64,000 nt of DNA, from NCBI GenBank assembly GCA_964545975.1, contig CAZJHY010000001.1, positions 24,094 to 88,093 on the forward strand, given 5' to 3'. Shown piece by piece: positions 11,037 to 28,625 of this stretch. The translations under genes and the position numbers were made by a program. Source of the stretch: an uncultured Clostridia bacterium (lineage in GTDB: Bacteria > Bacillota > DTU025 > MWDF01). The notes beneath the pieces are model-generated. The model did no database searches and was not told the DNA's origin. It saw only the letters and a list, made by a program, of their open reading frames with translations. The stretch's first letter is position 1, and each line of letters opens with the position of its first letter.

Positions 11037-11065
11037 ACATCATCCAAGGGGCTCTCCTTGATTTT

Positions 11066-12011: not shown

Positions 12012-12151
12012 CTCCATTAGTATACAATCCAGAAAGGGGTGTTCGGCAGGCAGCTAACCACGGTAGTACCAAAATTACTAGCGACCAATCGCAAGTGGGA
12101 CAAGAAATCAATCTCCAGCGAGAAGTATAAGCAATTAGGGGAGGGAATCTT

Positions 12152-13162: not shown

Positions 13163-13180
13163 TCTCATAGAAGTCCTGCT

Positions 13181-13210
13181 ATGGAGCCCTGTCGCAAGAC
13201 GGGGCTCCAT
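13181..13210 (+). promoter_or_regulatory. Intercistronic stem-loop after the substrate-binding protein gene
   Basis: ATGGAGCCC (13181-13189) pairs with GGGCTCCAT (13202-13210), a 9-bp stem. The ATG at 13181 is part of the stem, so it is unlikely to be the ATPase start. Confidence 0.55.
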
Positions 13211-13231
13211 GCACCCAAGGGGGCGTTATTT

Positions 13232-14752
13232 TTGGAGATAGTACCTATCCTCGAAGCGAGGAACATCAGCAAGGAGTTCCCGGGCGTAAAGGCGTTGGAT
13301 GAAGTATCCATACAGGTAAGGCCCGGCGAGGTCCATGTACTGATAGGAGAGAACGGGGCCGGAAAGAGCACGCTGTCCAAGATACTCATGGGAGTGTATA
13401 CCAGCGACAAGGGCGAGATCCTGTTCGATGGTAAGCCCGCCCACATTAGGAACCCTCATGACGCAAGGGCATTAGGCATATGCGGTGTCCATCAGGAGTT
13501 CATGCTTGTACCCTGGATGAACGTCGCACAGAACATCTTCATCAACAGAGAGCCCAGGATTTGGCCGGGGCTTCCCTTCATAGACCACAAGAAGATGCAC
13601 GAGGACAGCAGGAAGCTGCTTTCCTCCTTCAACGTGAACATCAACACCAAGCAGCCGGTGAAATACCTGGACACCGCGCTCCAGCAGATGGTGGAGATAG
13701 TAAAGGCGCTATCTACGAACCCCAAGGTCCTGATACTTGACGAACCGACTGCAGTCCTCACGGACAGGGAGGTCAACAGCCTCTTCGCCCATATAGAGGA
13801 GCTGAGAAGCCGAGGGGTTGCGATCATATACATATCGCACAGGCTTCCTGAGATCAGAAGGATAGGCGACAGGGTCACGGTCCTAAGAGACGGGAAGTAT
13901 GTAGCAACGGTTGACATCAAGGACACCCCCGACGAGGAGCTCATCAAGATGATGGTGGGCAGGAGCGTTTCGCAGCTTTATACCAGAAACCGCCAGGTTC
14001 CCGGGAAAGAGGCCCTGAGGCTTGAGAATTTCAGCGTGAAGGGCGGACCGCAGAATGTCGACCTGGTGCTGCACTACGGAGAGATCATTGGGCTTGCGGG
14101 CCTGATTGGTTCAGGGCGCACCGAGCTTGTCAGGGGCATCATGGGAATTGACCAGCAGACAGGCGGTTCCCTTTACATCGATGGCAACAAAGTCACGGTC
14201 GGAAGCCCTGACAAGGCGATAGGACTGGGGCTGGGGCTTCTGCCTGAGGACCGCAAGAGGTATGGCCTCGCCCTTAAGACGAACATCGCCTGGAATACCA
14301 TAATGGCGAGCCTCAAGCGGGAGTTCCCCAAGGGAGTAGTAAGGGAGCGCAAGGTGCGCGACATCGCCCAGGGCTATGTTAAGCAGCTGAAAATCGCCAC
14401 AGACTCGGTATCTAAGGTGGTGGGCTTCCTAAGCGGAGGCAACCAGCAGAAGGTTGTCGTCGCCAAGTGGATCAACACCAAGGCCAAGATCCTCATCTTC
14501 GACGAACCTACAAGGGGCATCGACGTGGGGGCCAAGGCAGAGGTGCACGCCCTCATGGACAAACTGGTGGCCGAAGGAAACGCGATCATAATGATTTCCT
14601 CCGACCTGCCGGAAGTCCTCGGGATGAGCGACCGCGTCTACACGATATTCCAGTGCCGTTCCATGGGGGACTGCTGCTTCCAGGAGGCGAACCAGCAGAG
14701 AATCGGCTCCCTTATGCTGGGAGTGGGGGTGAAGACAGATGCAAACCAGTAA
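13232..14752 (+). CDS. Sugar ABC transporter ATP-binding protein, duplicated ATPase (RbsA-like)
   Basis: Two nucleotide-binding domains are present (GENGAGKST; LSGGNQQKV; ILIFDEPTRGID). The preferred start is TTG 13232, 9 nt after AAGGGGG. The ORF itself opens at 13181. Confidence 0.88.
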   Translation: MEIVPILEARNISKEFPGVKALDEVSIQVRPGEVHVLIGENGAGKSTLSKILMGVYTSDKGEILFDGKPAHIRNPHDARALGICGVHQEFMLVPWMNVAQNIFINREPRIWPGLPFIDHKKMHEDSRKLLSSFNVNINTKQPVKYLDTALQQMVEIVKALSTNPKVLILDEPTAVLTDREVNSLFAHIEELRSRGVAIIYISHRLPEIRRIGDRVTVLRDGKYVATVDIKDTPDEELIKMMVGRSVSQLYTRNRQVPGKEALRLENFSVKGGPQNVDLVLHYGEIIGLAGLIGSGRTELVRGIMGIDQQTGGSLYIDGNKVTVGSPDKAIGLGLGLLPEDRKRYGLALKTNIAWNTIMASLKREFPKGVVRERKVRDIAQGYVKQLKIATDSVSKVVGFLSGGNQQKVVVAKWINTKAKILIFDEPTRGIDVGAKAEVHALMDKLVAEGNAIIMISSDLPEVLGMSDRVYTIFQCRSMGDCCFQEANQQRIGSLMLGVGVKTDANQ

Positions 14753-15704
14753 GCTCATGGGCTTTTTGAGGAAGGTCCCGCCGGCGACATACATCATACT
14801 GCTCATGATAGCCATATACGGCATCGCCGCGCCCGGCTTCTTCACCCTTGGAAACCTCGAGAACGTCGGAAACCAGGCGGCCCCCCTTCTCATCGTCGCC
14901 ATAGGTGTGACCATGGTCATCATGACGGAGGGTACAGACCTTTCGATCGGTTATGTGATGGGCATGGTCGGAGTCGTTGTATCGATTATGCTTAGGGCGA
15001 AAATCTGGATAGGCTGGGCGTTCCTTGCCGGCATCGCGGTAGGGGTGTTCTGCGGCTTCATAAACGGCGTCGCAGTCGCAAAGCTCAAGCTTCCTCCGTT
15101 CATTGCTACGCTTGGTACCGGAAACGTCATATTCGGAATAGGCCTCGTCATAACCGAAGGATACTCCATACAGGCACTTGATCCTGCGCTGCTTTTTCTG
15201 GCAAGCGGCAAGGTGTTCGGAATAAGCATGCCGATACTGATTGCCACGGTGGTCTTCGGGTTATGCTGGGTACTCATGAACTACACGCCGTTCGGGCGCA
15301 ACATAGTCTCTCTCGGAGGCAACTCCGAGGCGCTTAGAGGCGTTGGCCTTAACGTCGGGAAAGCCTCCATATCGGTATACATGATGTGTGGCTTCCTTGC
15401 GGCAATAGGAGGCCTCATAGTGGCGTCAAGGACAGGCTCAGGCTATTCGGCGGCTGCCATGGGATGGGAGTTCGACGCCATCGGAGCCAGTATAATCGGC
15501 GGTACATCCTTCGAGGAGGGCAATGGATCCATAAGCAGGACCGTAATTGGTGTCGCGCTCATATCGATACTCAGAAACGGCCTTAATGTCGTGGGCGTGC
15601 CGAACATGTACCAGTACGCGCTCATCGGCGCCATAGTGCTGACGGCCATAATCCTGGACGTTCGCTTCAGGCAGGCCGCGAAGGGAGGCGTCAAGAGAGT
15701 ATGA
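14739..15704 (+). CDS. Sugar ABC transporter permease (RbsC-like)
   Basis: Polytopic protein with the RbsC-type motif TGGIDLS/GTDLSIG. Confidence 0.9.
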   Translation: MQTSKLMGFLRKVPPATYIILLMIAIYGIAAPGFFTLGNLENVGNQAAPLLIVAIGVTMVIMTEGTDLSIGYVMGMVGVVVSIMLRAKIWIGWAFLAGIAVGVFCGFINGVAVAKLKLPPFIATLGTGNVIFGIGLVITEGYSIQALDPALLFLASGKVFGISMPILIATVVFGLCWVLMNYTPFGRNIVSLGGNSEALRGVGLNVGKASISVYMMCGFLAAIGGLIVASRTGSGYSAAAMGWEFDAIGASIIGGTSFEEGNGSISRTVIGVALISILRNGLNVVGVPNMYQYALIGAIVLTAIILDVRFRQAAKGGVKRV

Positions 15705-16696
15705 ACGAAGGTTCAAGGATGAAGGACACCCCCAAGGCGGTCGCAATCGTAAACGACAGGCTCAAGGCAAGGGAGGCCATAGCTCCCCTCTTCAGGCTCA
15801 CGTTCCTGATAGTCCTCATGATCGCACTTTCCATACTCAGCGAGGACTTCTTCACATGGAGCAACCTAATTAACGTTCTCAGGCAGTCGACTTTCCTGAT
15901 AGTAATCGGCCTCGGGCTCACAGGGGTGCTGCTTACCGGAGGCATCGACCTGTCCGTAGGCGGTGTGCTCGCATTCGTGGGCTGCGCGACTGGACAGATG
16001 ATGAGATCCGGCGTTCCGCTTTATCTTGCAGTGCCAATCGGTCTTCTAATCGGAGCGGGAGTCGGATGCTTCAACGGTTTCATGGTGGGGTACATCAAGC
16101 TTCCTCCGTTTGTGGCCACTTACGGTTCCAAGTGGATATCCGAGGGCATGGCGCTGCTTCTTATGCAGGGGCAGGTCATCTACGGCTTCCCGAGGGTGTA
16201 CCGCTGGATCGGCATCGGCTACATAGGACCCATACCAGTGCCCATCATAATTGCTGCCATCCTTGCGGTAATAATGAACTTCCTGTTCGTGAAGACCGTA
16301 TTCGGCAGGCAGGTATATGCACTGGGCGCCAACAAGGAAGCAGCATTCTACTCGGGCATCAAAGTCAAGAAGAACATCATGGTGGTATACACCCTTGCTG
16401 GCCTCATGGCGGGCATTGCCGGCCTTCTGATGCTTGCAAGGCTTGACGCCGCCGAGGTGAACATGGGAGAGGCCCTGCAGCTGCAGTCCCTCGCCGCGGT
16501 CATCATCGGGGGTGCATCCCTTCGCGGAGGCGAGGGCAGCATATTCGGCACGATAATTGGCGCCATAACCCTTACGCTGGTCGTAAACGGGCTTAACCTG
16601 CTTGGCGTGCGCTCTTTGTGGCACTCAGTGGTGCTCGGCGGCGTCATCCTGGCATCCGTGATAATGGACCTGCGCATGAAGAAGCTGGCGCAATAA
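15701..16696 (+). CDS. Sugar ABC transporter permease (RbsC-like, second copy)
   Basis: Polytopic protein with LTGGIDLSVGG. Its start forms an ATGA overlap with the upstream permease gene. Confidence 0.9.
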   Translation: MNEGSRMKDTPKAVAIVNDRLKAREAIAPLFRLTFLIVLMIALSILSEDFFTWSNLINVLRQSTFLIVIGLGLTGVLLTGGIDLSVGGVLAFVGCATGQMMRSGVPLYLAVPIGLLIGAGVGCFNGFMVGYIKLPPFVATYGSKWISEGMALLLMQGQVIYGFPRVYRWIGIGYIGPIPVPIIIAAILAVIMNFLFVKTVFGRQVYALGANKEAAFYSGIKVKKNIMVVYTLAGLMAGIAGLLMLARLDAAEVNMGEALQLQSLAAVIIGGASLRGGEGSIFGTIIGAITLTLVVNGLNLLGVRSLWHSVVLGGVILASVIMDLRMKKLAQ

Positions 16697-16727
16697 GGAT
16701 TAGCAGAAAGAAAAAGGAGGAACACCA

Positions 16728-17537
16728 ATGGCCAACCTTACGATCAGACCCATAAACACCGGTTACGCGGAAACCTACAAGAAGCAGTACCAGTACCATC
16801 ATTCTACCCACAAGTACCACAACGTCGACGACGGAAAGCTTCTTCTGCCCTGCATGGCATTCCTTATCGAGGGCGGAGACAAGCTCGTGCTGGTAGACAC
16901 CGGCATGTCCAACACCGAGATAGCCAACAAGTATCATCATCCGGGTTCGTACCAGCCTGACGGCTTTGCGATACATGAGCAGCTGGCGAAGCTGGGCATC
17001 AAGTGCGAGGACATCGACATTGTCATCTTCACGCACATGCACTGGGACCACATGCACAACATGGAGAAGTTCGTAAACGCCAGGTTCATCGCCCACAAGA
17101 AGGAATGGGAGTTCTGCCAGAACCCCATCCCGCTGTACTACAAATCATACGAGCATCCCAAGCTCGGCATAAAGGCTCCCTTCACTGGCCTTAAGATCGA
17201 GACCGTAGAGGGCGAGCAGGAGATAGTCCCCGGCATAAGGGTGTTCGAGAGCTTCGGGCATTCGCCGGGCCACATGTCCGTGGAAGTCGACTGCGAGGAC
17301 GGATCCTACATCCTCTGCGGCGATGCGGTATTCATCTACGACAACCTTAAGCCCGTGCCGGACATGTTCTATGAGATTACTCCCCCGGCCAGGTATGCCA
17401 ACATCGTCGAGTGCTGGAACAGCATAGTCGAGATGAAGCATAGGGCCAAGGAGCAGCGCTTCATACTGCCCTCCCATGAGCCTGAGATAGAGGAGCTCGC
17501 GAAGAAGTACGGAACTTTCCCGATACCCAAGAAGTAA
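16728..17537 (+). CDS. Metallo-beta-lactamase-fold hydrolase, lactonase-like (AiiA/UlaG-type fold)
   Basis: The HxHxDH motif appears as THMHWDHMHN. GHSPGH, CGD and SHEP follow, in the order expected for the zinc ligands. Confidence 0.8.
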   Translation: MANLTIRPINTGYAETYKKQYQYHHSTHKYHNVDDGKLLLPCMAFLIEGGDKLVLVDTGMSNTEIANKYHHPGSYQPDGFAIHEQLAKLGIKCEDIDIVIFTHMHWDHMHNMEKFVNARFIAHKKEWEFCQNPIPLYYKSYEHPKLGIKAPFTGLKIETVEGEQEIVPGIRVFESFGHSPGHMSVEVDCEDGSYILCGDAVFIYDNLKPVPDMFYEITPPARYANIVECWNSIVEMKHRAKEQRFILPSHEPEIEELAKKYGTFPIPKK

Positions 17538-17619
17538 CATCACACCGATTGGGGGTGCGGCCGGGAGGCAGGTCCAAGGGGGCGCGGGCCTCCGAAGACA
17601 GCCAACCCGGCCTTGTCAT

Positions 17620-18843
17620 ATGAAGACTATCGCAGTGATAACCTCGCTGGACACGAAGGGGAAAGAGACCCTCTATATAAAGGATGCGATCGAGAGGTTC
17701 GGCTCGAAGGCTCTCATCATAGACGTAGGGGTCAAGGAGCCGCCATATTTCACGCCTGATATCGCAAGGCACGAGGTGGCCGCCGCCGCCGGCATCGACT
17801 GGGATACGGTGAAGGACAAGGAGAAAAGGGTGAGGATAAGCACCATGACCTCAGGCCTTGAGGTGCTTATACCCAAGCTATATGCCGAGGGGAAGCTTTC
17901 GGCCGTGTTCTCGATGGGAGGCCTTCAGAACACAACGATGGGAACATCGGCGATGAAGACCCTGCCGCTCGGGGTGCCTAAGCTCATGCTTTCCACGATG
18001 GCGTCCAGCAACAGGCCTTTCGGTCCGTTCGTGGGAACCAAGGACATGACCCTCATGCACTCGGTGGGCGACATCCTAGGGGTAAACCCCGTCACCAAGG
18101 CCGTGATGGATAACGCCGTCGGAGCCATCGTGGGGATGGCGGAGCACGCCGGAAACAGGGTGCAGAAAACTGACAGGATCCTTGTGGGTGCCACTATGCT
18201 CGGCGTAACGAACGACGGAGTGAGCCGCGCGGTATCCTACCTCGAGGAGGCAGGCTACGACGTGGTCACCTTCCATGCGAACGGTGCGGGAGGACCGGCC
18301 ATGGAGGAGCTCATAGGACAGGACACGATAGACGCCGCGATGGATCTTACGCTGCATGAGATAGACGCTGAATTCTTCGGGGGGCACTGTTCGGGGGCGA
18401 CCAACAGGCTCCTTATGGCCGCCGAGAAGGGGATACCCCAGGTTGTTTCGCTTGGTGCCTCCGACGTCATAGACTATGAGGTCGTGGACCTCGACAAGGT
18501 AAGGGAGTATGGAAGGCGCAAGTTCGTCTATCAGCACCCCACCATCCAGCACATAAAGCTCATAGAGGAAGAGGCGCACAAGGTCGGGACGGTAATCGGG
18601 GAGAGGCTCTCAAAGGCCAAGGGTCCCCTAACCCTCGTCATACCTAGGGGAGGCTTCCACCAGAGCAGCTACAAAGGCGGTCCCATATGGGATCCTGCCA
18701 TCGACGAGATAATCATAGGACACATACTAAGCAGGATTGCGCCTTCCACAAGGGTGGTAGAGACCGCAGCCCATATCAACGAGCCCGCCTTCAGCAGGGT
18801 GGCGGCCGATGAGATGATTAAGCTTCTGAAGGCCATGCGCTAA
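17620..18843 (+). CDS. UPF0261 / Tm-1-like ATP-binding domain protein
   Basis: The N-terminus MKTIAVITSLDTKGKE matches my memory of the UPF0261 family. The length is about 400 aa. This call rests on recollection, not a search. Confidence 0.7.
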   Translation: MKTIAVITSLDTKGKETLYIKDAIERFGSKALIIDVGVKEPPYFTPDIARHEVAAAAGIDWDTVKDKEKRVRISTMTSGLEVLIPKLYAEGKLSAVFSMGGLQNTTMGTSAMKTLPLGVPKLMLSTMASSNRPFGPFVGTKDMTLMHSVGDILGVNPVTKAVMDNAVGAIVGMAEHAGNRVQKTDRILVGATMLGVTNDGVSRAVSYLEEAGYDVVTFHANGAGGPAMEELIGQDTIDAAMDLTLHEIDAEFFGGHCSGATNRLLMAAEKGIPQVVSLGASDVIDYEVVDLDKVREYGRRKFVYQHPTIQHIKLIEEEAHKVGTVIGERLSKAKGPLTLVIPRGGFHQSSYKGGPIWDPAIDEIIIGHILSRIAPSTRVVETAAHINEPAFSRVAADEMIKLLKAMR

Positions 18844-18875
18844 GCAGGGCCAGAAGCCTCACAAGGAGGATTCCG

Positions 18876-20132
18876 ATGTTCTACGGACTGCCTTTCGACA
18901 ACCCCGAGTCCATTTATGGCAGGGATTACGTTCTGGGCACCTATTTCGTGACCGGCGTCACAGGAGACGATGCGCTTAATAAGCTGGGCATGTTTGCAGT
19001 CGGCCAGTCCACCGGCACGTGGATGCCGGTGCCCGGCATAACCAGGCAGATGGTGGAGGATCATCAGGGAAGAGTCGTCGGATGCTATCCGGTGCCCGCC
19101 CAGGAGCCCGGCGCCTACGTTCTTAGGGTGGCGTTTCCCTACAGCAACATAGGCGGGTCCATCTCGATGCTGCTTACCACGCTTGCGGGAAACGACGCTT
19201 CGACTGCGCTGTGCGCGAAGCTCATAGACGTGGAGCTTGTCGGCAAGGCGAAGTCGGCCTTCCACGGTCCGCACTTCGGAATAGACGGGGTGAGGAAGCT
19301 CACGGGAGTCTACGACAGGCCCATAGTCATGAATATGATCAAGCCTTGCACGGGCTTTCCGGCTACGGCAGGGGCGGAGTTCTTCTACGCGTCCGGATCA
19401 GGCGGCGTAGACATAATAAAAGATGACGAGCTTATGGGCAACACCAGCTTCAATTCCGTCGCCGACAGGGTGAGGGAGTATGGTAAGGCTCAAGCGAGAA
19501 TCGGAGGAGAGAGGGGCAAGGCCCCTATATACCTTCCCAATGTGACCGACAGGCACGATAAAATGCGCGACAACATCAAGGCGGCGATAGACGGCGGAGC
19601 GAAGGGCGTCATGGTCAACTTCGTCTTCACCGGACTCGACAGCCTTGCCGCGCTTACATCGGAGTTCGGCGACAAGGTGATGTTCCTCGCTCATGCGGCA
19701 GGAGTTGGCGTCATGACCGGTTATCCGCAGGGCTTAAGCACCTCGCTTCTTCTAGGAAGGCTCGGAAGGCTGGCAGGCGCGGACGCGGTGGTCACCCTTT
19801 ATCCTCTCGGCATGGGAGGAGACGGCTTCCAGGAGCTTCAGATGACGGTGCAGAAGCACAGGCTGCCTCTGGGAGATGTCAAGCAAGCCTTGACCGTGGT
19901 CGGAGGAGGCGTCACGCCGCTTACCGTACCGTTTGCGGTGAAGAGCTTCGGCAAGGACATAATCATCGCCGTTGGCGGTGGCATCCAGGGCCACCCGGAC
20001 GGGGCGACGGCAGGCGCAAAGGCCATGATGGCTGCGGTGGATGCGACCATGAAGGGCGTAAGCCTGGAAGACGCGGTTAAGGACAGCCCGGAGCTCGGAA
20101 GGGCGATAACCAGATGGGGCAAGAAGGCTTAA
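18876..20132 (+). CDS. RuBisCO-like protein (form IV RLP)
   Basis: Three blocks align without gaps, by eye, to RbcL: RPIVMNMIKPCTG...GGVDIIKDDE, TVVGGGV and AVGGGIQGHPDG. The protein is only 418 aa. No small subunit, phosphoribulokinase or cbb genes are nearby. Confidence 0.85.
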   Translation: MFYGLPFDNPESIYGRDYVLGTYFVTGVTGDDALNKLGMFAVGQSTGTWMPVPGITRQMVEDHQGRVVGCYPVPAQEPGAYVLRVAFPYSNIGGSISMLLTTLAGNDASTALCAKLIDVELVGKAKSAFHGPHFGIDGVRKLTGVYDRPIVMNMIKPCTGFPATAGAEFFYASGSGGVDIIKDDELMGNTSFNSVADRVREYGKAQARIGGERGKAPIYLPNVTDRHDKMRDNIKAAIDGGAKGVMVNFVFTGLDSLAALTSEFGDKVMFLAHAAGVGVMTGYPQGLSTSLLLGRLGRLAGADAVVTLYPLGMGGDGFQELQMTVQKHRLPLGDVKQALTVVGGGVTPLTVPFAVKSFGKDIIIAVGGGIQGHPDGATAGAKAMMAAVDATMKGVSLEDAVKDSPELGRAITRWGKKA

Positions 20133-20154
20133 GGGCCGCCCGAATGATGACCGT

Positions 20155-20793
20155 ATGGAGGTAAAGCAGATGGAAGATCTTATCATGAGCATAAAAAGGG
20201 ACGTGGAGCTCGCCTGCAGGAGGGCGTACACGAGGGGAATACAGACCGGAAGCGGCGGAAACGTCAGCGCAAGGATACCGGGCACGGACCATATGATAGT
20301 GAAGCCAAGCAAGGTGTCGCTCATCGAATGCGACCCCGAGACGCTTATCATAACCGACTTCGACGGAAACTTGGTGCAGGGCTCTCTTCCTCCTACGAGG
20401 GAGGCGGTGCTTCACGGCTGGCTGTATAAGAAGTTCGGCAAGATCGGAGCGGTGGTTCACACCCATTCGCCCTGGGCTATATCCTGGTCCTTCACCAGGA
20501 GGGACCTTCCCAATATTACCATGCATACTCAGCTTAAGCTGGGATGCCCCATCCCGGTCAGGTTCTTCTCCAGCCCCAAGGGGGTTCTGAAGGAGGAGAT
20601 GCCAGAAGTCTACGGCCTTTTCGAGAAGGAACCGAACCTCGCCGCCTTCATACTCGGTGCGCACGGTGTGGTCGCAGTCGGCGACAATATCATAGAGGCC
20701 GAGCACACGGCGGAGCTCATAGAGGAGACGGCACAGATAGCATACCTGCACGAGATGGGATTGAAGCTCGGGATGTTCCCCGAGGGCAGATAA
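20155..20793 (+). CDS. Class II aldolase/adducin-domain protein
   Basis: Motifs GSGGNVSAR and VVHTHSP. Confidence 0.85.
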   Translation: MEVKQMEDLIMSIKRDVELACRRAYTRGIQTGSGGNVSARIPGTDHMIVKPSKVSLIECDPETLIITDFDGNLVQGSLPPTREAVLHGWLYKKFGKIGAVVHTHSPWAISWSFTRRDLPNITMHTQLKLGCPIPVRFFSSPKGVLKEEMPEVYGLFEKEPNLAAFILGAHGVVAVGDNIIEAEHTAELIEETAQIAYLHEMGLKLGMFPEGR

Positions 20794-20822
20794 GACGAAG
20801 ACAATCCGAACGGAGTGATCAT

Positions 20823-21284
20823 ATGTACAGGAAGATGGTAATAGGCTGCGACGAGGCGGCCTGTGAGCTGAAAAACGCCCTTATCGAGGTCCTTAAGAAG
20901 AAGGGAATTGAGTATGAGGACGTCGGAGTGCCGGATGCAAGCGACAAGACCTATTATCCCCTGGTGGCAGAGAAGGTGGCCGAGGCGATAATAGAAAGCG
21001 GCTATGAGAAGCACGGGATGCTCCTCTGCGGAACGGGCATCGGCATGGCCATATCCGCGAACAAGCACCCCGGGGTATTTGCCGCTGTATGCCACGACCA
21101 GTATTCTACCGAGAGGGCGAAGCTGAGCAACAACTGCAACGTCATCTGCATGGGGGCAAGGGTCATAGGGCCAGAGCTTGCCAAGAAGAACCTGGAGCAA
21201 TGGCTTGAGCTGACGTTCAAGGACGGCTCCTCGACCCCTAAGGTGGAGGCTGTGAAGGATATCGAGAAGAGGCATATGAAATGA
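20823..21284 (+). CDS. RpiB/LacA/LacB-family sugar-phosphate isomerase
   Basis: MVIGCDEAA, and LLCGTGIGMAISANK containing the catalytic Cys. The start is ATG 20823. The longer ORF from 20544 overlaps the aldolase gene and is rejected. Confidence 0.88.
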   Translation: MYRKMVIGCDEAACELKNALIEVLKKKGIEYEDVGVPDASDKTYYPLVAEKVAEAIIESGYEKHGMLLCGTGIGMAISANKHPGVFAAVCHDQYSTERAKLSNNCNVICMGARVIGPELAKKNLEQWLELTFKDGSSTPKVEAVKDIEKRHMK

Positions 21285-22075
21285 GGAGCCCGCTTCTTGT
21301 CGGCACGAACCTCAAGATGTACAAGGGCGTGAAGGAGACGCTGGAGTTCCTTTCGCGCCTTGCGGGAAACGTCAGCCACATAGGCAGCGAAGACATGACG
21401 CTCTTCGTCATACCCTCCTACCTTGCCCTTCATGCGGCATGCGGGTCTGATGCGCACAGCAGGATACTCCTTGGCGCGCAGAATCTGCACTGGGAGGACT
21501 CCGGGCAGTTCACCGGTGAGATATCCCCCATGATGCTCAAGGAGATAGGCATAGATATCGCTGAGATCGGCCACTCGGAACGAAGGCAGCTTTTCGGTGA
21601 GACGGACGTGACAGTGGGGCTTAAGGCCAAGGCAGCGCTCAGGCACGGCATGAGGGCCCTGGTATGCATAGGGGAGACCGCAGACGACAAGGCGTCGGGC
21701 ATTACCTATGAGAAGCTGAGGATGCAGGTGAAGGTGGCCTTAAAGGGGATTTCTGCGGATGAGCTCGAGGGGCTTTGGGTAGCATACGAGCCGGTATGGG
21801 CCATCGGGATCCACGGGGTCCCGGCTGAGCCCGGATACGCCGAGAAGAGCCACAGGATGATAAAAGACGTGCTGGAAGAGCTTTACCCTAATAAGGGCGC
21901 AGGCGTTCCCGTGCTGTACGGCGGAAGCGTCAACATGGAAAACGCCATGGAGCTCATCGTCCAGCCGAGCATAGACGGCTTGTTCATAGGAAGGACCGCT
22001 TGGGACGCGGACAGGTTCGCGTCGCTGATCAAGGATGTCCTCCCCTTGTGGAAGGCCAAGGCTGAGAGAGAATAG
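21281..22075 (+). CDS. Triosephosphate-isomerase-family protein (TpiA/EryH/LerI-like)
   Basis: Motifs NLKMY, GHSERR, AYEPVWAIG and YGGSVN. Its start forms an ATGA overlap with the RpiB-like gene. Confidence 0.88.
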   Translation: MRSPLLVGTNLKMYKGVKETLEFLSRLAGNVSHIGSEDMTLFVIPSYLALHAACGSDAHSRILLGAQNLHWEDSGQFTGEISPMMLKEIGIDIAEIGHSERRQLFGETDVTVGLKAKAALRHGMRALVCIGETADDKASGITYEKLRMQVKVALKGISADELEGLWVAYEPVWAIGIHGVPAEPGYAEKSHRMIKDVLEELYPNKGAGVPVLYGGSVNMENAMELIVQPSIDGLFIGRTAWDADRFASLIKDVLPLWKAKAERE

Positions 22076-22104
22076 GGCAAGGCTTACGAAGGCGGTGTGA
22101 TGCA

Positions 22105-22776
22105 ATGGCGGACATGGTCATGGAGGCGAAAAGGCAGTTAATAGAGATCGGAAGGCAGATAGCTGCCAAGGGACTTGTGATAGGACCCGGCGGAAATACC
22201 AGCTTAAGGGCAGGCGCCCTCATGGTGATATCCGCCAGCGGCTCTTCATTCGAGTGCTCCGACGAGAGCGACTACGTCGCGATAGACATAGAGACAGGAA
22301 AACAGGCCGACGGCGGCAAGAGGCCGTCTTCCGAAGTGCTGATGCACCTTGAGTGCTACAGGAGGCGCCCGGATGTAAACGCTGTAGTCCATACCCATCC
22401 GACGTGGTCGACATCTGTAGCAAGCTCGGGCACCAAGATGCCCCCGATGTTCCCGGATTACGTCGTGTTCGTGGGCAAGCCCGCGACCCTGGATTACGTG
22501 ATACCGACGACGAAGCTTCTGGCCGATGCCGTGGCCGAAGTCATAGGGGAGCATAATGTGGTGCTCATGAGCAATCACGGGGTGCTTGCCGTCGCAGGCG
22601 ACCTCAAGATGGCGCTATTAAGGGTGGAGCTGGCAGAGGAGAACGCAAGGATGCTCGTGATAGCAAACTCCCTCGGCAAGCCGCGATCCCTTACGGATGC
22701 CGAAGTCCAGGCGATATTTGACCTGGAGAGCGAGAAGTACAGGCAGAGGCTTCTGAAAAACGAGGGCGGGAAGTAG
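22105..22776 (+). CDS. Class II aldolase/adducin-domain protein
   Basis: Motifs GPGGNTSLR and VVHTHP. Confidence 0.85.
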   Translation: MADMVMEAKRQLIEIGRQIAAKGLVIGPGGNTSLRAGALMVISASGSSFECSDESDYVAIDIETGKQADGGKRPSSEVLMHLECYRRRPDVNAVVHTHPTWSTSVASSGTKMPPMFPDYVVFVGKPATLDYVIPTTKLLADAVAEVIGEHNVVLMSNHGVLAVAGDLKMALLRVELAEENARMLVIANSLGKPRSLTDAEVQAIFDLESEKYRQRLLKNEGGK

Positions 22777-22798
22777 TCCTAAAAAGGAGGACGCACCA

Positions 22799-24271
22799 TT
22801 GTCCGACAGGCTTTTCATGGGGATAGACGTGGGCACGGGCGGAGCCAGGGTCATAGTCTGCGACGAGTACGGGTTGCCCCTGGCGGAAAGCTCGAGGCCG
22901 TTTGCCGCAGGTGCCGGCGCATCTGACATGCCCCAGGGCTGGCATCAGCAGTCGCCCGCAGCCTGGTGGGACGCGACTTCCGCATGTATAAGGCAGGTCA
23001 TGGGCTCACCCGGACTCGGCGGAAATCCTGGCAGGGTGTTCTCTGTTTCCGTCACATCCACATCAGGTACTGTGATCCCGCTTAGGGAGGATTGCGAACC
23101 GCTCTGGGATGCGGTCATGTACAACGACAGCAGGTCGTCCGCGCAGGCGGAAAGGGCGAACGAGGCGCTTAAGGAATTATGCGGGAAGCTCGCCTACAGG
23201 TTCGACACATCCTTCGGGCTTCCGAAGATGCTATGGTTCATGGACAGCAAGCCTGAGCTGTTCAGAAGGACCAGATTCTTCGTCCACGCTGGCGATTATA
23301 TTATCGGGAAGCTCTGCGGCTGCTTCGGTTTCACCGACTATTCCAACTCGCTGAAGTCTGGATACGACATCGATGAGCTGATATGGCCGAAGGAGATAGA
23401 GGAGAAACTGGGCGTCCCGGCGTCCAAACTGCCGGAAGTGCTCGCCCCGGGCACGGTAGTCGGGAAGGTCTGCGCCGCCTGCTCCGCAGAGACGGGCCTT
23501 CCGGAAAGCACCAACGTCGCGCTGGGCATGACGGACGGCTGCGCCTCGCAGATTGCATCGGGTGCCGCGTCCTTAGGCGACTGGAACACCACGATCGGCA
23601 CAACGCTTGTAATCAAGGGGGTCACCGAGAGGCTCCTCTTCGACCCGAAGGGAAGGATATACAGCCACAGGCATCCCGACGGGCACTGGATGCCAGGCGG
23701 GGCCAGCAACGTCGGCGGCGACTGCATAAGAAGCAACTTCCGCGACGATGAGCTGGATACGCTGAACGCGTCCGTGCGCCCTGAGAAGCCGACAGGCATG
23801 CTGGTGTACCCTCTGGAGAAGAAGGGCGAGAGGTTCCCGAACAGAGATCCTTTGGCAGAGGGGTTCATAATGGGAAGCCCATCAGGAAGGCCCGAGCTCT
23901 ATCAGGCCTACCTTGAGGGTGTTGCGCTGGTGGAGAAGATGTCATACGAGATGCTTCAGAGCTTGGGGGCGGCAATCGGTGACACGATCTTTGCGGCGGG
24001 AGGCGCCACGAAAAGCGAGCCATGGCTCAAGGTAAGGTCGAATATGCTCGACCGGCGCATTGCAGTCCCGGAGATTGCAGGAGGATTCATGGGAGCCGCC
24101 ATACTAGCAGCTTCCCTCTCCCATTGGGGCTCGCTCGGTGAGGCTGCCAAAAACATGGTAAAAATTTCCAAGACGATATGCCCGGACCCTGCCGCTGTCG
24201 ATGCCTATAAGGATAAGTACGGGCAGTTCATAAGAGAGATGGGAAGCAGGGGATATACCCTGGAGGGATGA
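22799..24271 (+). CDS. FGGY-family carbohydrate kinase
   Basis: N-terminal MGIDVGTGGARV and C-terminal FAAGGATKS, typical of xylulokinase/ribulokinase-type kinases. TTG start after AAGGAGG. Confidence 0.85.
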   Translation: MSDRLFMGIDVGTGGARVIVCDEYGLPLAESSRPFAAGAGASDMPQGWHQQSPAAWWDATSACIRQVMGSPGLGGNPGRVFSVSVTSTSGTVIPLREDCEPLWDAVMYNDSRSSAQAERANEALKELCGKLAYRFDTSFGLPKMLWFMDSKPELFRRTRFFVHAGDYIIGKLCGCFGFTDYSNSLKSGYDIDELIWPKEIEEKLGVPASKLPEVLAPGTVVGKVCAACSAETGLPESTNVALGMTDGCASQIASGAASLGDWNTTIGTTLVIKGVTERLLFDPKGRIYSHRHPDGHWMPGGASNVGGDCIRSNFRDDELDTLNASVRPEKPTGMLVYPLEKKGERFPNRDPLAEGFIMGSPSGRPELYQAYLEGVALVEKMSYEMLQSLGAAIGDTIFAAGGATKSEPWLKVRSNMLDRRIAVPEIAGGFMGAAILAASLSHWGSLGEAAKNMVKISKTICPDPAAVDAYKDKYGQFIREMGSRGYTLEG

Positions 24272-24275
24272 TGAT

Positions 24276-25673
24276 ATGAGCATTTACAAGGCCTGCGACA
24301 TAAGGGGAGTCTACCCTTCGTCGCTCGACGAGAAGACGTCATACGATATAGGAGCGGCTTTGGGGGAGATGCTCGGCCCTGTAAGCATGCTCGTCGCAGG
24401 CGACGTGAGGGTCAGCACGCCGCCTTTGAAGCAAAGCCTTATAAACGGCCTTGTGGACGCCGGATGCGAAGTAGTGGACATCGGCATGGCCCCGACCCCG
24501 GCCTTCTACTACGCGCTTCATAAGCTGGGCACCGAGTCGGGCGTGACGGTGACGGCATCCCATAATCCGGCCAAGTACAACGGCTTCAAGATAGCGCCGC
24601 ACGGGCAGCCCATGACTGAAGACGTGATGGACGACCTGAGGAAGATGGTCGAAGCTGGAGGATTCAAGCCATATGGGCAAGGGAGCGTAAGGAAGGCTGA
24701 GGTCATCGAGGATTACAAGAGATTCGTGCTTGATAAGATAGGAGAGCTAACGGGAACGAAGTGCAGCGCTCATGGTTCGAGTAATGCCCTCAAAGCCGTG
24801 GTGGACTGCGGCAACGGCTGCTACAGCACGATAGCCCCTGAAGTTCTAAGGCAAGCTGGCATCGCGGTTGAGGAGCTCTATTGCTGGGAGGATGGAACTT
24901 TCCCTAACAGGGAGCCAAACCCAGCTGTAGCTGAGAATCTCGAGGCTTTATGCGGCAAGGTCAGAGATACGGGGGCAGACCTTGGCATTGCCTTCGACGG
25001 GGACGGTGACAGGGTGGTCTTCGTGGACGAGCTGGGCAAAGTGGTCCCTAGCGACAATGCGATAGCACTTTTCGCCGGCTTCCTCCTTAAGAATCACCCC
25101 GGCTCGAAGGTGGTTTTCGACATCAAGTGCTCAAGCCTTGTGTCGGATTCGATCAAGGCGGCGGGCGGCATTCCAGTGATGGAGAAGTCAGGCCACGCTT
25201 ACATCAAGAACAACCTGCTGAGAAACGGCGCGGTTTTCGCAGGCGAGATCAGCGGGCACTTCTTCTTCCAGGTGCTCAAGGGGGATGACGGGCTGTTCGC
25301 GGCTCTTCTGATGGCCGAGATCATGATGTCGGAGGGCAGAAGCCTGGGGAAGATGGTGGAGTCGCAGCCGAAGTACTTCACTACAAGAGACTTCAGGATA
25401 CCGTTCTCGGGGAGCACGGCCGAGCTGTTCGGAAGGCTCAAAGCGCGCCTTGAGGCAAGCGGAGGCGCAAACCTGTCGTACCTGGACGGCATAAGGGCGG
25501 AGTTTTCTGAAGGCTGGGGGCTTATAAGGGCATCAGTCACTGAGCCACTGGTTACGCTGAGGTTCGAGGGGAAGTCGTTGGAGAGCCTTGATAGGATAAG
25601 GGATAGCTTCCTTGCTGCAGATGAGGACTTGCTTGATGCCGTAAGGGAGGTTTGGGCAAACCATCTTCCTTAG
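24276..25673 (+). CDS. Phosphomannomutase/phosphoglucomutase-family phosphosugar mutase
   Basis: Active-site loop TASHNPAKYNGFK, metal loop FDGDGDR and GEISGH. Confidence 0.9.
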   Translation: MSIYKACDIRGVYPSSLDEKTSYDIGAALGEMLGPVSMLVAGDVRVSTPPLKQSLINGLVDAGCEVVDIGMAPTPAFYYALHKLGTESGVTVTASHNPAKYNGFKIAPHGQPMTEDVMDDLRKMVEAGGFKPYGQGSVRKAEVIEDYKRFVLDKIGELTGTKCSAHGSSNALKAVVDCGNGCYSTIAPEVLRQAGIAVEELYCWEDGTFPNREPNPAVAENLEALCGKVRDTGADLGIAFDGDGDRVVFVDELGKVVPSDNAIALFAGFLLKNHPGSKVVFDIKCSSLVSDSIKAAGGIPVMEKSGHAYIKNNLLRNGAVFAGEISGHFFFQVLKGDDGLFAALLMAEIMMSEGRSLGKMVESQPKYFTTRDFRIPFSGSTAELFGRLKARLEASGGANLSYLDGIRAEFSEGWGLIRASVTEPLVTLRFEGKSLESLDRIRDSFLAADEDLLDAVREVWANHLP

Positions 25674-25685
25674 CCGAATGGACGT

Positions 25686-26372
25686 CTACTTCTCGGTGAA
25701 CTCCCTCATATAGCACTCGTATTTGCTGCAGTTCACCTGTATTCTCCTGTTTACGCTCCGGATGAATCCTTCGTTGGCAAGCTCGTTCATTAGCTTGCTT
25801 ACGGTCACCCTTGCAGCTCCTACGATGACTCCCAGCTCATAGTGCGTGTATCTCACCTTGAGCTCATACCAGCCGGGGTCGGCCTCGGCTTCCCTGTCGA
25901 CAGAGGAGCAGAGAAGCCTTGCTATCCTGTCCTTGCATGAGTTGAAGGTCAGGTTTTCAATCTCGAACCTGGTAATCAGGAGCTTCGTCGCCAGGCAACG
26001 GATGAATGCGTCCCTGAAGACAGCGCTGCTGTCCAGAAGCTGCCTCACCTTGTCCGGCGGTATCTTGCAAAGGACGACATCGGTCTCGGCTTGGGAGTAA
26101 AGTCCGGTCTTCCTTCCCAGGTAGAAGCCCATCTCACCGAAGAGCCAGCCCGGAGTGAGAGCATAGAGGACCTTTTCAAGCCCGTCCTCGTTCGCCATGA
26201 AATGCTTGGTCCTGCCCGACTTGATGTACAAGACGCCGCCGAAATCGCTCCCGGGCACAGAGAAGAGCGTCTTGGCAGGATAGGTAACCCTAATCGAGTT
26301 CTGCTCGATTATCTTCTCCAGTGCCTCGTTGTATGCATCGGGCATTAAGAGCCCCGTCTCCTCAAGGCGCAA
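25686..26372 (-). CDS. Crp/Fnr-family transcriptional regulator
   Basis: It has a cNMP-binding-like beta-barrel (GWLFGEMGF) and a C-terminal helix-turn-helix (THYELGVIVGAARVTVSKLMNEL). Confidence 0.85.
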   Translation of the reverse strand: MRLEETGLLMPDAYNEALEKIIEQNSIRVTYPAKTLFSVPGSDFGGVLYIKSGRTKHFMANEDGLEKVLYALTPGWLFGEMGFYLGRKTGLYSQAETDVVLCKIPPDKVRQLLDSSAVFRDAFIRCLATKLLITRFEIENLTFNSCKDRIARLLCSSVDREAEADPGWYELKVRYTHYELGVIVGAARVTVSKLMNELANEGFIRSVNRRIQVNCSKYECYMREFTEK

Positions 26373-26598
26373 AATGAACCACCTCCTGCAACTTTCATTC
26401 TACCATCACTGGAGATCCTTTTCCCTCTGCCTTGAGTTGAGGTGAAAAAGGTTTCATTAGCAGCAATGATGCAGAGCTGTTCCGTATTGCCGCAATTGTA
26501 ACAAAGTATACAAATCCTATTCATATACTGAAATACTTTGAGCTTCGTCCTATATTTGAATCGGAGGCCATTAATCTTCCCGCATAAGGAGGGATATC

Positions 26599-27513
26599 TT
26601 GATAAAACCTACCGGCTCATGGGTGGCGATGCCGACCCCTTTCAATCAGGATGAAACCATCGACTTCGGTGGATTCAAGACGCTCATCGACAGGCAGATA
26701 GAGTACGGGACCTCTTTATTGTTCGTGCTCGGATCGTGCGGAGAGACCACGCTTCTTACGATTGATGAGAAGAAGCAGATAGTCAAGCAGGTCGTAGCGA
26801 TGACCAAGGGGCGCATTCCGGTGTTCTTCAACGCATCCGCCCCCACTACGGCCCAGAGCGTAGAGTTTGCCAAGTTCTGCGAGGCGGAGCACGCCGACGG
26901 TGTGATATTCACCGTGCCGCCATATGTGCTCATACCGCAGAATGCGGTATATGAGCACCTCAACACGTGCATGTCAGCGACCGGCCTTCCCTGCGGAATC
27001 TACAACAACCCTTCCAGGGTGGGCGTGCACATCGAACCTGAGACGATAGCGAAGCTTTCGGCCAACAATCCCAACTTCATAGTGGACAAGGAAGCCATGC
27101 CCAGCGTAAAGCAGCTTGTGGAAGTCAAGCGCAAGTGCGGCGACAACATCAACATACTCTGCTGCGACTTCCCTAACTACTCCATAGTGCTTCCAACACT
27201 AGCAATAGGTGGAAACGGAACCGCGAACATAGGAGGAAACGTCATACCTGAGGAGATGGCCGCAATCTCCAGGCCGTGGGACAGCATCGAGAAGATGTTT
27301 GAGGCGCGCGAGCTGTACTTCAAGTATTTCCCCGTCCTTCAGGGCCTGTATATGTTCTCGAACCCCATCGTGGTCAAGGCGGCCATGAAGATGCTCGGCC
27401 TTCCCGGCGGGCCGCTCAGGAAGCCCTACCTAGAGCTCTCAGGGCAGAAGTACGACGAGTTCGAGGCGCTCCTCAAGGAAATGGGCATAGTCGAGAAATA
27501 TGGCGTCAAGTAA
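26599..27513 (+). CDS. DapA-family class I aldolase-lyase (second paralog)
   Basis: Motifs VAMPTPF, VLGSCGE and GIYNNP. TTG start 5 nt after AAGGAGGG. Confidence 0.85.
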   Translation: MIKPTGSWVAMPTPFNQDETIDFGGFKTLIDRQIEYGTSLLFVLGSCGETTLLTIDEKKQIVKQVVAMTKGRIPVFFNASAPTTAQSVEFAKFCEAEHADGVIFTVPPYVLIPQNAVYEHLNTCMSATGLPCGIYNNPSRVGVHIEPETIAKLSANNPNFIVDKEAMPSVKQLVEVKRKCGDNINILCCDFPNYSIVLPTLAIGGNGTANIGGNVIPEEMAAISRPWDSIEKMFEARELYFKYFPVLQGLYMFSNPIVVKAAMKMLGLPGGPLRKPYLELSGQKYDEFEALLKEMGIVEKYGVK

Positions 27514-27602: not shown

Positions 27603-28577
27603 ATGAAGAAGACTTCCATGCGCCTGATGCTGGCAGCAGCCCTCGTGATCTCGATCATGTTCTCGTCCGTGGCAGCCGCACCTAAGTTCCTTACCATATC
27701 CACCGGCCCTGTGGGCGGGGAATGGTACATACTTGGCGGAATACTCTCCGAGCTCCTGAAACCGGTGCTTCCTGACACCAAGGTAACCGCAACAACCGGC
27801 GGCGGCGTCGCAAACCTCAGCACAGTGGCCTCCGGCAAGAGCGACATAGGCACCACGCAGGATCAGCTCCTGTATGATGCCCGCAATGGCACGACTGACT
27901 TCACCTCAGGAAAGCTCACCAACGTCGTCGCCATCGGATACCTGGCAGACATCTACATGAGCGTATTCCTCGTGCGCGAGGACTACAACATAACATCTCT
28001 TGATGACCTTGCAGCCAGGAAGATCGGCATGCGCATACTAACCGCCCCCACGGGCTCGACGCCTTCAAGGGCCGCGGTCAGGATGCTTGAGGAATACGGA
28101 GTGACCCCCGATCTCCTTAAGTCATGGGGGGGAAGCTTGAGCTACGTCGCCTATGCGGACGCAAGCTCGATGATCAGGGACGGCCATGCCGACGCCTATG
28201 TGGGCCCCATCATGCCCGCCATCATAGAGCTCACCGTCTCCCGCAAGATGAAGATGCTGCCGGTGAAAGAGACCGTCCTTAAGGCCATGACTGCCAAGTA
28301 CGCATATGGCAGGGCCACAATACCCGCTGGAGCATATGACTTCGTGAAGGCCAACACGCCCGTCATGACCGAGTCGCCCGTCCTCATCGTCAGGGATGAC
28401 GTCGACGAGCAGACCGTATACCTCATAACCAAGGCGATAGCCGAGAACCCTGCGAAGATCCAGGGCGCCGGCGCGACCTATGCAAAGTTCGACCCCAAGA
28501 TGATGCCCAACATATCGGGCGGTCCCATACATCCCGGAGCCCTCAGGTACTATAAGGAGAAGGGCTGGGTCAAGTAG
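27603..28577 (+). CDS. TAXI-family TRAP transporter solute receptor
   Basis: A signal peptide is followed by LTISTGPVGGEWYILGG, which is characteristic of TAXI receptors. Confidence 0.85.
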   Translation: MKKTSMRLMLAAALVISIMFSSVAAAPKFLTISTGPVGGEWYILGGILSELLKPVLPDTKVTATTGGGVANLSTVASGKSDIGTTQDQLLYDARNGTTDFTSGKLTNVVAIGYLADIYMSVFLVREDYNITSLDDLAARKIGMRILTAPTGSTPSRAAVRMLEEYGVTPDLLKSWGGSLSYVAYADASSMIRDGHADAYVGPIMPAIIELTVSRKMKMLPVKETVLKAMTAKYAYGRATIPAGAYDFVKANTPVMTESPVLIVRDDVDEQTVYLITKAIAENPAKIQGAGATYAKFDPKMMPNISGGPIHPGALRYYKEKGWVK

Positions 28578-28594
28578 GCTTCCTTAAAGCAGCA

Positions 28595-28617
28595 GAGGGG
28601 CCGGAAACCGGCCCCTC
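28595..28617 (+). promoter_or_regulatory. Intercistronic perfect 10-bp GC hairpin after the solute-receptor gene
   Basis: GAGGGGCCGG-AAA-CCGGCCCCTC, located between the stop at 28577 and the permease start at 28626. Confidence 0.55.
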
Positions 28618-28625
28618 CAAGACTT

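Follow-up and report, generated by a model that had tools for sequence, protein, structure and literature searches.

The 64-kb window of DNA analysed here (64,000 nt from an uncultured Clostridia bacterium) contains, at positions 20155-22776 of the plus strand, four co-directional genes, whose products are assigned by the list of open reading frames (ORFs) and by Pfam to the Aldolase_II, LacAB_rpiB, TIM and, again, Aldolase_II families. They are a part of a series of 14 co-directional genes (12152-25673), which overlap or are separated by gaps of 4-82 nt, and which we propose to be one operon with the RpiB-like and TIM-like genes as its lower module. Results of our sequence analysis indicate that the products of these two genes (20823-21284 and 21281-22075) are probably a pair of isomerases, of DerI/EryI type and LerI/EryH type, respectively, which would serve as the exit toward erythrose-4-phosphate from an operon centred on a RuBisCO-like protein (RLP). 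The preliminary description of the window had noted a translational coupling of the two genes by an ATGA overlap, and the overlap is indeed present at 21281-21284, where the TGA stop codon of the RpiB-like gene (21282-21284) overlaps the ATG start codon of the TIM-like gene (21281-21283). Overlaps of this type are commonplace in operons and unremarkable alone. Tight junctions of RpiB and TIM genes occur also in relatives, namely, in loci L004, L006 and L094 and, with the order of the two genes reversed, in Rhizobium etli (L088).

From its family membership and sequence signatures, we propose that the TIM-like protein belongs to the LerI/EryH type and isomerises L-erythrulose-1-phosphate. The catalytic motifs NLKMY, GHSERR and AYEPVWAIGIHG are present in this protein, and its residues N10, K12, H98 and E170 are invariant in the alignment of 37 homologues, which bears out the earlier observation that the catalytic Lys, His and Glu are retained. 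The suspected kinship to EryH and LerI also finds support: the closest solved structure is that of the Brucella melitensis L-erythrulose-1-phosphate isomerase EryH (11ef/11eg/13gn, 202 bits), while canonical TIM structures score 179 bits at most. The AlphaFold2 model of the protein is a TIM barrel (pLDDT 93), for which the Foldseek search of the PDB places EryH first, with 42% identity to 11ef (released 2026-03-04). The loop that follows the catalytic Glu, AIGIHG, had been described as altered, and it proved to be a signature of a whole family. This loop 6, of the form IGxxGxPA, is one residue longer than the canonical one, and among the top 120 homologues a single one lacks it. The longer loop 6 and a loop 8 of the form DGLF.GR[ST]AW are common to EryH, the TIM of the R. 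etli apionate cluster, a Pasteurella paralogue, and all RLP-linked TIMs, while five canonical TIMs (those of E. coli, T. maritima and G. stearothermophilus, and two more) have IGT-GK.A and DG.LVGGASL and contain neither signature.

In a neighbour-joining tree (Kimura, 300 bootstraps) that includes the five canonical TIMs, the window TIM is placed inside a clade of non-canonical TIMs of 99% bootstrap support, and a wider group of LerI type, from which the canonical TIMs are all absent, has a support of 65%. Within this tree the window TIM groups with the protein P0009 (75%), and the window pair belongs to a separate subclade, marked by the NLKMY motif, of Bacillota and Gammaproteobacteria. An exact-sequence look-up of the window TIM gave no matching record. 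In the case of profile NF000722 (cut-off 293), the scores are 432 for EryH, 424 for the TIM of the R. etli apionate cluster, 295.8 for the window TIM, which clears the cut-off by a small margin, and 182 for E. coli TpiA, while the generic profile TIGR00419 (cut-off 130.6) gives 360 to E. coli TpiA, 151.4 to the window TIM and 127-133 to the LerI types. It should be mentioned that NF000722 is curated as a 'triose-phosphate isomerase' equivalog, although Brucella EryH scores highly with it and E. coli TpiA falls below its cut-off; it is in effect a LerI/EryH model under the TpiA name and therefore spreads mis-annotation. The whole LerI-like TIM subfamily is named 'triose-phosphate isomerase' by NCBI.

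The RpiB-like protein leans, by its sequence, towards the DerI/EryI type and may be a D-erythrulose-4-phosphate isomerase. It shares 45% identity with DerI of R. etli and scores higher with the DerI model NF051858 (154.3, cut-off 240; R. etli DerI 257.9, E. coli RpiB 120) than with the rpiB model TIGR01120, the equivalog cut-off of which it fails (126.1, cut-off 138.65; R. etli DerI 113, E. coli RpiB 256). Both results agree with the kinship to DerI and EryI suggested in the preliminary description. The CGTG motif of the protein is kept and aligns with Cys66 and Thr68 of E. coli RpiB, while two E. coli motifs are changed, GCDHVG to GCDEAA (His10 to Glu) and QHND to LSNN (His99 to Ser). The same two histidine replacements are found in R. 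etli DerI, in PDB 5ifz, and in every RLP-linked RpiB. Opening of the furanose ring of ribose-5-phosphate is the task of the His99 equivalent, the loss of which fits the proposed substrate, since a 4-phosphorylated tetrose cannot form such a ring. An RpiB gene lies beside a LerI-type TIM gene in the window (with the 4-nt overlap) and in L004, L006, L088 and L094.

LerI-type TIMs occur also in other genetic settings, where they are 51-57% identical to the window TIM (49% in the case of R. etli) and where each is accompanied by an adjoining RpiB gene. In L006 and L007, the two genes are associated with those of Dak1/Dak2 kinase subunits and of an AP_endonuc_2-family protein (which we take to be the Pfam family of EryC), in Blautia (L002/L003) with those of PdxA and a DUF1537 acid-sugar kinase, and in Pasteurella (L089) they are located beside dhaK/dhaL, tal and tkt. 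On the plasmid p42f of R. etli CFN42 (L088), the genes follow each other in the order oiaX (for an RLP annotated as 3-oxo-isoapionate-4-phosphate decarboxylase), four-carbon acid sugar kinase, TIM, RpiB, 6PGDH_C-type protein (presumably ApnO), RbsB-type binding protein and Gfo/Idh/MocA oxidoreductase. Our statements on the D-apiose pathway draw in part on the annotation of R. etli and on secondary citations.

The location of TIM-fold and RpiB-fold genes side by side is common to the window and to the EryH/EryI and LerI/DerI systems. LerI converts L-erythrulose-1-phosphate to D-erythrulose-4-phosphate, which DerI converts to D-erythrose-4-phosphate (PMC10733421). It has also been proposed that a C5 3-oxo-acid is phosphorylated by a kinase and decarboxylated to a tetrulose phosphate, on which LerI and DerI then act (PMC12994016). 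The comparison of the window proteins with LerI and DerI of M. smegmatis is based on the published descriptions of the latter (PMC10733421, PMC12994016). Brucella EryH shares with the window TIM the loop-6 insertion and the loop-8 motif, and the alphaproteobacterial DerI-type proteins share with the window RpiB the same histidine replacements, although the latter, unlike DerI of R. etli, misses the curated DerI score. The difference from those systems concerns also the supply of substrate: the window pair would be fed by an RLP route in place of the kinases and dehydrogenases of erythritol or threitol.

The D-apionate cluster of R. etli corresponds to the apionate route named in the preliminary description and is the precedent for a TIM-family and RpiB-family pair linked to an RLP. 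Like the window, it comprises genes of an RLP, a kinase, and TIM-type and RpiB-type proteins (49% and 45% identical to those of the window) near genes of an RbsB-type ABC importer. However, the window RLP is only 29% identical to OiaX and scores 128 with the OiaX model, the cut-off of which is 700, while the kinases of the two clusters, UPF0261 in the window and DUF1537 (OiaK) in R. etli, represent unrelated families. The window additionally contains genes of an MBL-fold, lactonase-like protein and of a class II aldolase-fold protein, and a tblastn search of the window revealed no counterpart of the DUF1537, 6PGDH_C-type and Gfo/Idh/MocA proteins of R. etli.

An alignment of the RLP was used to scan 185,579 species genomes and yielded 80 loci in Bacillota, Acidobacteriota, Chloroflexota and Actinomycetota. 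Nineteen of them, with RLP identity of at least 47% and full flanks, are referred to as close RLP loci; TIM and RpiB genes were counted in them at identity of at least 45% (Table 1). One of the loci, L008, is from an uncultured Clostridia metagenome-assembled genome (MAG) and is 96% identical, which makes the source of the window a close relative. The full gene order of permeases, MBL, UPF0261, RLP, AldA, RpiB, TIM, AldB, FGGY kinase and phosphomutase (PGM) is found in a metagenomic contig (L001, TIM identity 71%) and in a MAG (L010, RLP identity 82%). A core comprising the binding protein, ABC importer, MBL, UPF0261, RLP, RpiB, TIM, AldA and a GntR regulator is present in Bacillota and Acidobacteriota, including the cultured Hydrogenispora ethanolica. 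In Chloroflexota, the Anaerolineaceae locus L029 has the core without RpiB, and the remaining loci have neither isomerase. Homologues of AldA with 53-57% identity, P0337 and P0255, are both encoded inside RLP/UPF0261 clusters, one of which is the complete core of Hydrogenispora ethanolica, while the other, in a Bariatricus MAG, contains no TIM or RpiB gene. An unbiased clustering of all neighbouring ORFs indicated that a GntR/FCD regulator is the sole other widely shared neighbour family. The Crp/Fnr regulator of the window is kept in place in L010 (74% identity), while most other clusters carry GntR/FCD.

Table 1. Genes of the proposed operon and those at its borders, with the number of close RLP loci in which each is represented
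Feature	Position	Strand	Basis of assignment	Close RLP loci
AldC, divergent class II aldolase-fold protein	11066-11713	-	Pfam Aldolase_II, E = 6e-48	
RbsB-like substrate-binding protein	12152-13162	+	Pfam Peripla_BP_4, E = 4.6e-59	15/19; the four importer genes precede the RLP cluster
ABC importer ATPase	13181-14752	+	translation	
ABC importer permeases (two)	14739-15704, 15701-16696	+	translations	
MBL-fold hydrolase, lactonase type	16728-17537	+	Pfam Lactamase_B, E = 3e-24	14/19
UPF0261 (Tm-1-like) protein	17620-18843	+	Pfam UPF0261 and UPF0261_C	19/19, adjoining RLP
RuBisCO-like protein (RLP), distinct clade	18876-20132	+	Pfam RuBisCO_large, E = 2.5e-39	
AldA, class II aldolase-fold, 212 aa	20155-20793	+	Pfam Aldolase_II, E = 9e-37	19/19
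RpiB-like isomerase, 153 aa	20823-21284	+	Pfam LacAB_rpiB, E = 6e-47	13/19
TIM-like isomerase, 264 aa	21281-22075	+	Pfam TIM, E = 1.5e-72	14/19
AldB, class II aldolase-fold, FucA-like, 223 aa	22105-22776	+	Pfam Aldolase_II, E = 1.7e-42	2/19
FGGY-family sugar kinase	22799-24271	+	Pfam FGGY_N/FGGY_C; XylB model 194, cut-off 380	2/19
PGM/PMM-family phosphomutase	24276-25673	+	Pfam PGM_PMM_I-IV	2/19
Crp/Fnr-family regulator, convergent at the operon end	25686-26372	-	Pfam HTH_Crp_2 and cNMP_binding	

The pattern of gene presence does not agree with the description of the four genes at 20155-22776 as one cassette. Because the distributions of these genes across the close RLP loci differ, the set has to be divided among three modules. 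AldA is a member, together with RLP and UPF0261, of an upper trio that is invariant, the RpiB-TIM pair makes up a lower module, frequent but facultative, and AldB opens a lineage-specific accessory module comprising also the FGGY kinase and the phosphomutase, which among the surveyed loci is found in L001, L009 and L010 only. The positions and families of two aldolase-fold paralogs that bracket the isomerase genes were confirmed. With an identity of only 27%, however, AldA and AldB are distant members of the superfamily rather than products of a recent duplication. Their treatment as a duplicated pair was rejected on this basis and on that of their different distributions.

Certain loci of the survey depart from the above arrangement. 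In L009 (an Aneurinibacillus sp. MAG), the complete set, with the genes of AldB, FGGY kinase and phosphomutase, follows that of RLP, and genes of TIM and RpiB, only 40-43% identical to those of the window, are located upstream of that of the binding protein, which suggests that the lower module was recruited there independently. In L027 (a Christensenellaceae MAG, 423-13221), the genes of UPF0261, RLP, RpiB, TIM and AldA are surrounded by those of a different ABC importer, a GH38 glycosidase, a Zn-dependent dehydrogenase and a D-lyxose-isomerase-family protein. This variant, found also in L023, on the same chromosome as L019 of the MBL type, lacks the MBL gene and has the Zn-dependent dehydrogenase in its stead. 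The hydrolase and the dehydrogenase appear to be alternative first steps, which would fit a keto-acid sugar as the substrate of the kinase.

The functions of the upper module proteins can be approached through their nearest relatives. For the MBL-fold protein, the nearest NCBIfam models are those of 4-pyridoxolactonase and AiiA, both scoring below their cut-offs, and the nearest structures are those of AiiA lactonases. The UPF0261 protein aligns over its full length with the structure of MarK (9mpy, 153 bits) and natively has, in its D-T-K motif, the ATP-contacting Lys that was introduced into MarK to activate it. MarK is an ATP-dependent kinase, and its activity is the first catalytic activity reported for the UPF0261 family (PMC12624787). 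The position of the UPF0261 gene beside that of RLP in all 19 close loci and the native Lys suggest a carbohydrate-type kinase role of the window protein, a role not yet described in this family.

The RLP scores below the cut-offs of all the named models with which it was compared, namely MtnW (NF007095, 265.8 vs. 409; TIGR03332, 220 vs. 513.6) and OiaX, and its assignment as either of these proteins was rejected. Its nearest structure is the uncharacterised 4nas (208 bits). The RLP clade is marked by the motif NMIKPC.G, in which a strictly conserved Cys replaces Lys177 of RuBisCO; in OiaX and 4nas this position is occupied by Ala. Lys175, KDDE (with the carbamylated Lys, Asp and Glu), His294 and both Gly-rich phosphate sites are kept, and Arg295, His327 and Lys334 are missing according to the motif analysis. 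The nearest named RLP family by score is MtnW/YkrW, 2,3-diketo-5-methylthiopentyl-1-phosphate enolase, which shares KDDE, Lys175 and His294 with the window RLP but differs in the residue at position 177, and no methionine-salvage genes are located near the latter. Our search of the literature found no paper tying UPF0261 to RuBisCO-like proteins, or this RLP clade to lactonases.

None of the named class II aldolase-fold models (FucA, AraD, OtnC) is matched above its cut-off by AldA or AldB. AldA scores best with an NCBIfam epimerase subfamily (117 vs. 251) and gives 85 vs. 250 with OtnC; in comparisons with PDB it is roughly equidistant from FucA (62 bits), 6vop (56 bits; presumably of YgbL/OtnC type) and AraD (51 bits). 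In the case of AldB, the similarity to FucA 6btd reaches 108 bits, and the best model score is 130 (NF005302, cut-off 264). Both proteins retain the metal ligands, Glu and three His. The 3-oxo-tetronate pathway (OtnK, OtnC), in which a keto-acid sugar is phosphorylated and then decarboxylated to a ketose phosphate by a class II aldolase-fold enzyme, resembles the route proposed for the window, and in the extensions of this pathway to C5 and C6 acids the product proposed for the C5 acids requires LerI and DerI (PMC12994016). The window route differs from that pathway by another kinase family and by the RLP. Additionally, a metal ligand of Glu73 type is present in AldA and absent from the 6vop protein, and given this and the low OtnC score of AldA, we rejected the latter as an OtnC orthologue.

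In the route for which we infer each substrate and each reaction, the ABC importer would take up a sugar-derived lactone or acid, which we guess to be an apiose-derived or ascorbate-type lactone. The MBL-fold lactonase would open its ring, and the UPF0261-family kinase would phosphorylate the ring-opened product. RLP and AldA might then turn the phosphorylated keto-acid into a tetrulose phosphate via enolisation plus decarboxylation and/or epimerisation, in either order. The TIM-fold enzyme, with its Lys-His-Glu, would move the carbonyl of L-erythrulose-1-phosphate from C2 to C3, giving D-erythrulose-4-phosphate, and the RpiB-fold enzyme, with its Cys/Thr, would convert the latter to D-erythrose-4-phosphate, which may enter the pentose-phosphate and shikimate routes. 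AldB, the FGGY kinase and the phosphomutase would provide a lineage-specific side entry. The preliminary description had suggested a C4 phosphate intermediate downstream of the RLP, and the link of the pair to the RLP is supported both by the conservation of the neighbourhood across phyla and by the R. etli p42f precedent.

The isomerase pair itself appears to be a Bacillota branch of the known LerI/DerI kind, and what is new is its partnership with the RLP clade, UPF0261, MBL and AldA proteins. The searchable literature contained no description matching an upper route of an MBL lactonase-like protein, UPF0261, a distinct RLP and an aldolase-fold protein. Our broader proposal, held tentatively and with a slight leaning to doubt, is that of an undescribed catabolic route in which a UPF0261 sugar-acid kinase, a new RLP clade with Cys for Lys177 and its AldA partner yield a tetrulose phosphate, which enzymes of LerI and DerI types convert to erythrose-4-phosphate. 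In this joint proposal, the route would be widespread in anaerobic Bacillota (Christensenellaceae, Oscillospiraceae, Lachnospiraceae, Hydrogenispora) and Acidobacteriota and partial in Chloroflexota.

Several observations weigh against the assignment of the pair as the exit of the RLP route. The reactions of the two isomerases are supported by computation, that is, by sequence, profile and synteny. The Foldseek comparison, although it places EryH first, gives nearly the same score to all TIMs, the bootstrap of the LerI-type super-clade is just 65%, and the window TIM passes the generic TIGR00419; the last of these does not discriminate, because the LerI-type protein of R. etli passes it too (133). 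The window RpiB remains below the curated DerI cut-off (154 vs. 240), and the short name of that model, EryPhIsonDerIRhiz, suggests that it was built on rhizobial sequences. Both histidines are absent also from 3qd5, a putative fungal ribose-5-phosphate isomerase, and thus their loss is not exclusive to the DerI type. TIM is missing from five and RpiB from six of the 19 close RLP loci at the identity threshold used. In three of these loci, from Bacillota MAGs (L014, L017 and L020, at about 5.6-12.3 kb), genes of RLP, UPF0261 and AldA are present without those of TIM, RpiB and MBL, and genes of a tungsten-type aldehyde:ferredoxin oxidoreductase and a URO-D-family protein are found instead. The existence of clusters lacking the isomerases means that a tetrulose phosphate need not be the sole fate of the RLP product. 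Clustering of neighbouring ORFs across the loci found no conserved oxidoreductase in the core, and therefore either the substrate is already at the oxidation level of a keto-acid or lactone, or the redox genes are located elsewhere. The roles of RLP and AldA cannot be separated; the relatives of both families include decarboxylases.

Some of these observations would be accommodated if the pair acted on another sugar phosphate provided by the RLP, e.g., a C5 or C6 ketose-1-phosphate, the carbonyl of which would be walked along the chain, with an end product other than erythrose-4-phosphate. The distance of the RLP clade from OiaX and its closer position to MtnW-type enolases are consistent with this, as are the failure of the window RpiB to reach the DerI cut-off and the existence of cluster variants without the pair. 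The RLP of R. rubrum is said, from the work of Imker et al. in 2008, to move the carbonyl along pentulose-1-phosphate. We nevertheless regard a substrate of this kind as unlikely, since the same TIM/RpiB subclade is found in Dak-kinase tetrulose contexts, with the window TIM and P0009 grouped at 75% bootstrap, the pocket-shaping residues of loops 6 and 8 match those of EryH, and the Pasteurella relative adjoins tal and tkt, the products of which use erythrose-4-phosphate.

Somewhat less likely still is a substrate-specific version of the assignment that we prefer, namely, that the window encodes a D-apiose/D-apionate pathway with non-orthologous enzymes, in which the MBL-fold protein would be an apionolactonase, UPF0261 and RLP would replace OiaK and OiaX, respectively, and AldA would catalyse hydroxymethyl migration. 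Enzymes of the class II aldolase fold typically carry out retro-aldol/aldol reactions, the architecture parallels that of the R. etli p42f genes (oiaX, kinase, TIM and RpiB, plus a binding protein of RbsB type), and the hosts include soil bacteria and anaerobes that degrade plant polymers. However, the window binding protein is merely 30% identical to that of R. etli, and homologues of the presumed ApnO (6PGDH_C-type), the Gfo/Idh/MocA dehydrogenase and the DUF1537 kinase are missing from the window. Two oxidations would be needed starting from apiose, yet no oxidoreductase is conserved in the core, and in a variant cluster the genes are found instead with those of a GH38 mannosidase, a dehydrogenase dependent on Zn and a protein of the lyxose isomerase family.

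That the two genes are ordinary housekeeping tpiA and rpiB genes, present by chance in a sugar operon whose aldolases release dihydroxyacetone phosphate (DHAP), is in our opinion very improbable. While the intact catalytic residues, the passing of TIGR00419, the NCBI name of the subfamily and the DHAP that the FucA-like aldolases of the operon would yield are compatible with such a role, the TIGR00419 score of the window TIM is far below that of E. coli TpiA (151 vs. 360), loops 6 and 8, responsible for phosphate binding and for closure of the active site, show exactly the alterations seen in EryH, and the RpiB equivalog cut-off is failed. Moreover, the association of the pair with the RLP cluster is conserved in different phyla, and proteins of the same type are encoded beside oiaX on rhizobial plasmids. 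A similarity search found no second TIM or RpiB gene within the window. Just as improbable is a self-contained tetritol/erythrulose pathway composed of the four genes and the FGGY kinase (kinase, isomerases and aldolase) with the RLP neighbourhood incidental, for although Brucella EryA is an FGGY kinase and sugar kinases are associated with the LerI/DerI pairs of L006 and L089, it is only in the window lineage and in L009 that the pair is joined by the FGGY kinase, AldB and mutase, while RLP, UPF0261 and AldA are its partners in most loci, and all the genes form one tightly spaced co-directional operon.

Certain details of the gene calls and of the surroundings of the operon should be added to the description of the isomerase pair and its neighbours. 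The ORF 20544-21284 (246 aa), Arg/Gly-rich and overlapping the AldA gene, is an artefact that extends the RpiB frame in the 5' direction; the real start of this frame is the ATG at 20823, preceded by GGAG. The true start of AldA is probably the ATG at 20170, because GGAGG is located 8 nt upstream of it and homologues of AldA have 204-207 aa. A promoter and terminator scan of 11600-26700 gave counts no higher than the shuffled level and thus says nothing about the operon boundaries; an Rfam scan of the entire window gave zero matches. In addition to the AldA and AldB genes, the window contains two Aldolase_II genes. One is that of AldC, the position and orientation of which are kept in L010 and which is possibly a part of the accessory functions. 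The other (34967-35758, plus strand; 263 aa with an N-terminal extension) lies between the genes of a flavin amine-oxidase-like protein (32887-34758) and an MFS transporter (35857-37152) and is unrelated to the operon. The operon region is flanked by two genes of the DHDPS family (DapA-like), one of which (8972-9868) follows a branched-chain-amino-acid-type ABC system (4356-8952), while the other (26599-27513) lies before a TRAP transporter of TAXI type (27603-30506). Each probably belongs to another catabolic unit, for acid sugars or amino acids.

Assignment of the pair to the LerI/DerI kind concerns more than the window itself. Databases label the two subfamilies 'triose-phosphate isomerase' and 'ribose-5-phosphate isomerase B', and therefore metabolic reconstructions of gut and soil anaerobes mis-assign the pair. 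The Bacillota branch of LerI and DerI types could be used in synthetic erythrulose-monophosphate cycles of formaldehyde assimilation. The pair is also a chemical handle on three neighbours of unknown function, namely, the RLP clade, UPF0261 and AldA. Were a tetrulose phosphate the exit metabolite, the RLP would have to act on a C5 keto-acid in phosphorylated form or on a closely similar compound, and the function of this large and uncharacterised clade could be tested directly; cultured carriers of the genes are available (Hydrogenispora ethanolica, Muricomes intestini and Lactonifactor longoviformis). In the case of UPF0261, a family whose sole known activity is the phosphorylation of an aromatic compound, the proposed sugar acid would be the first carbohydrate substrate.

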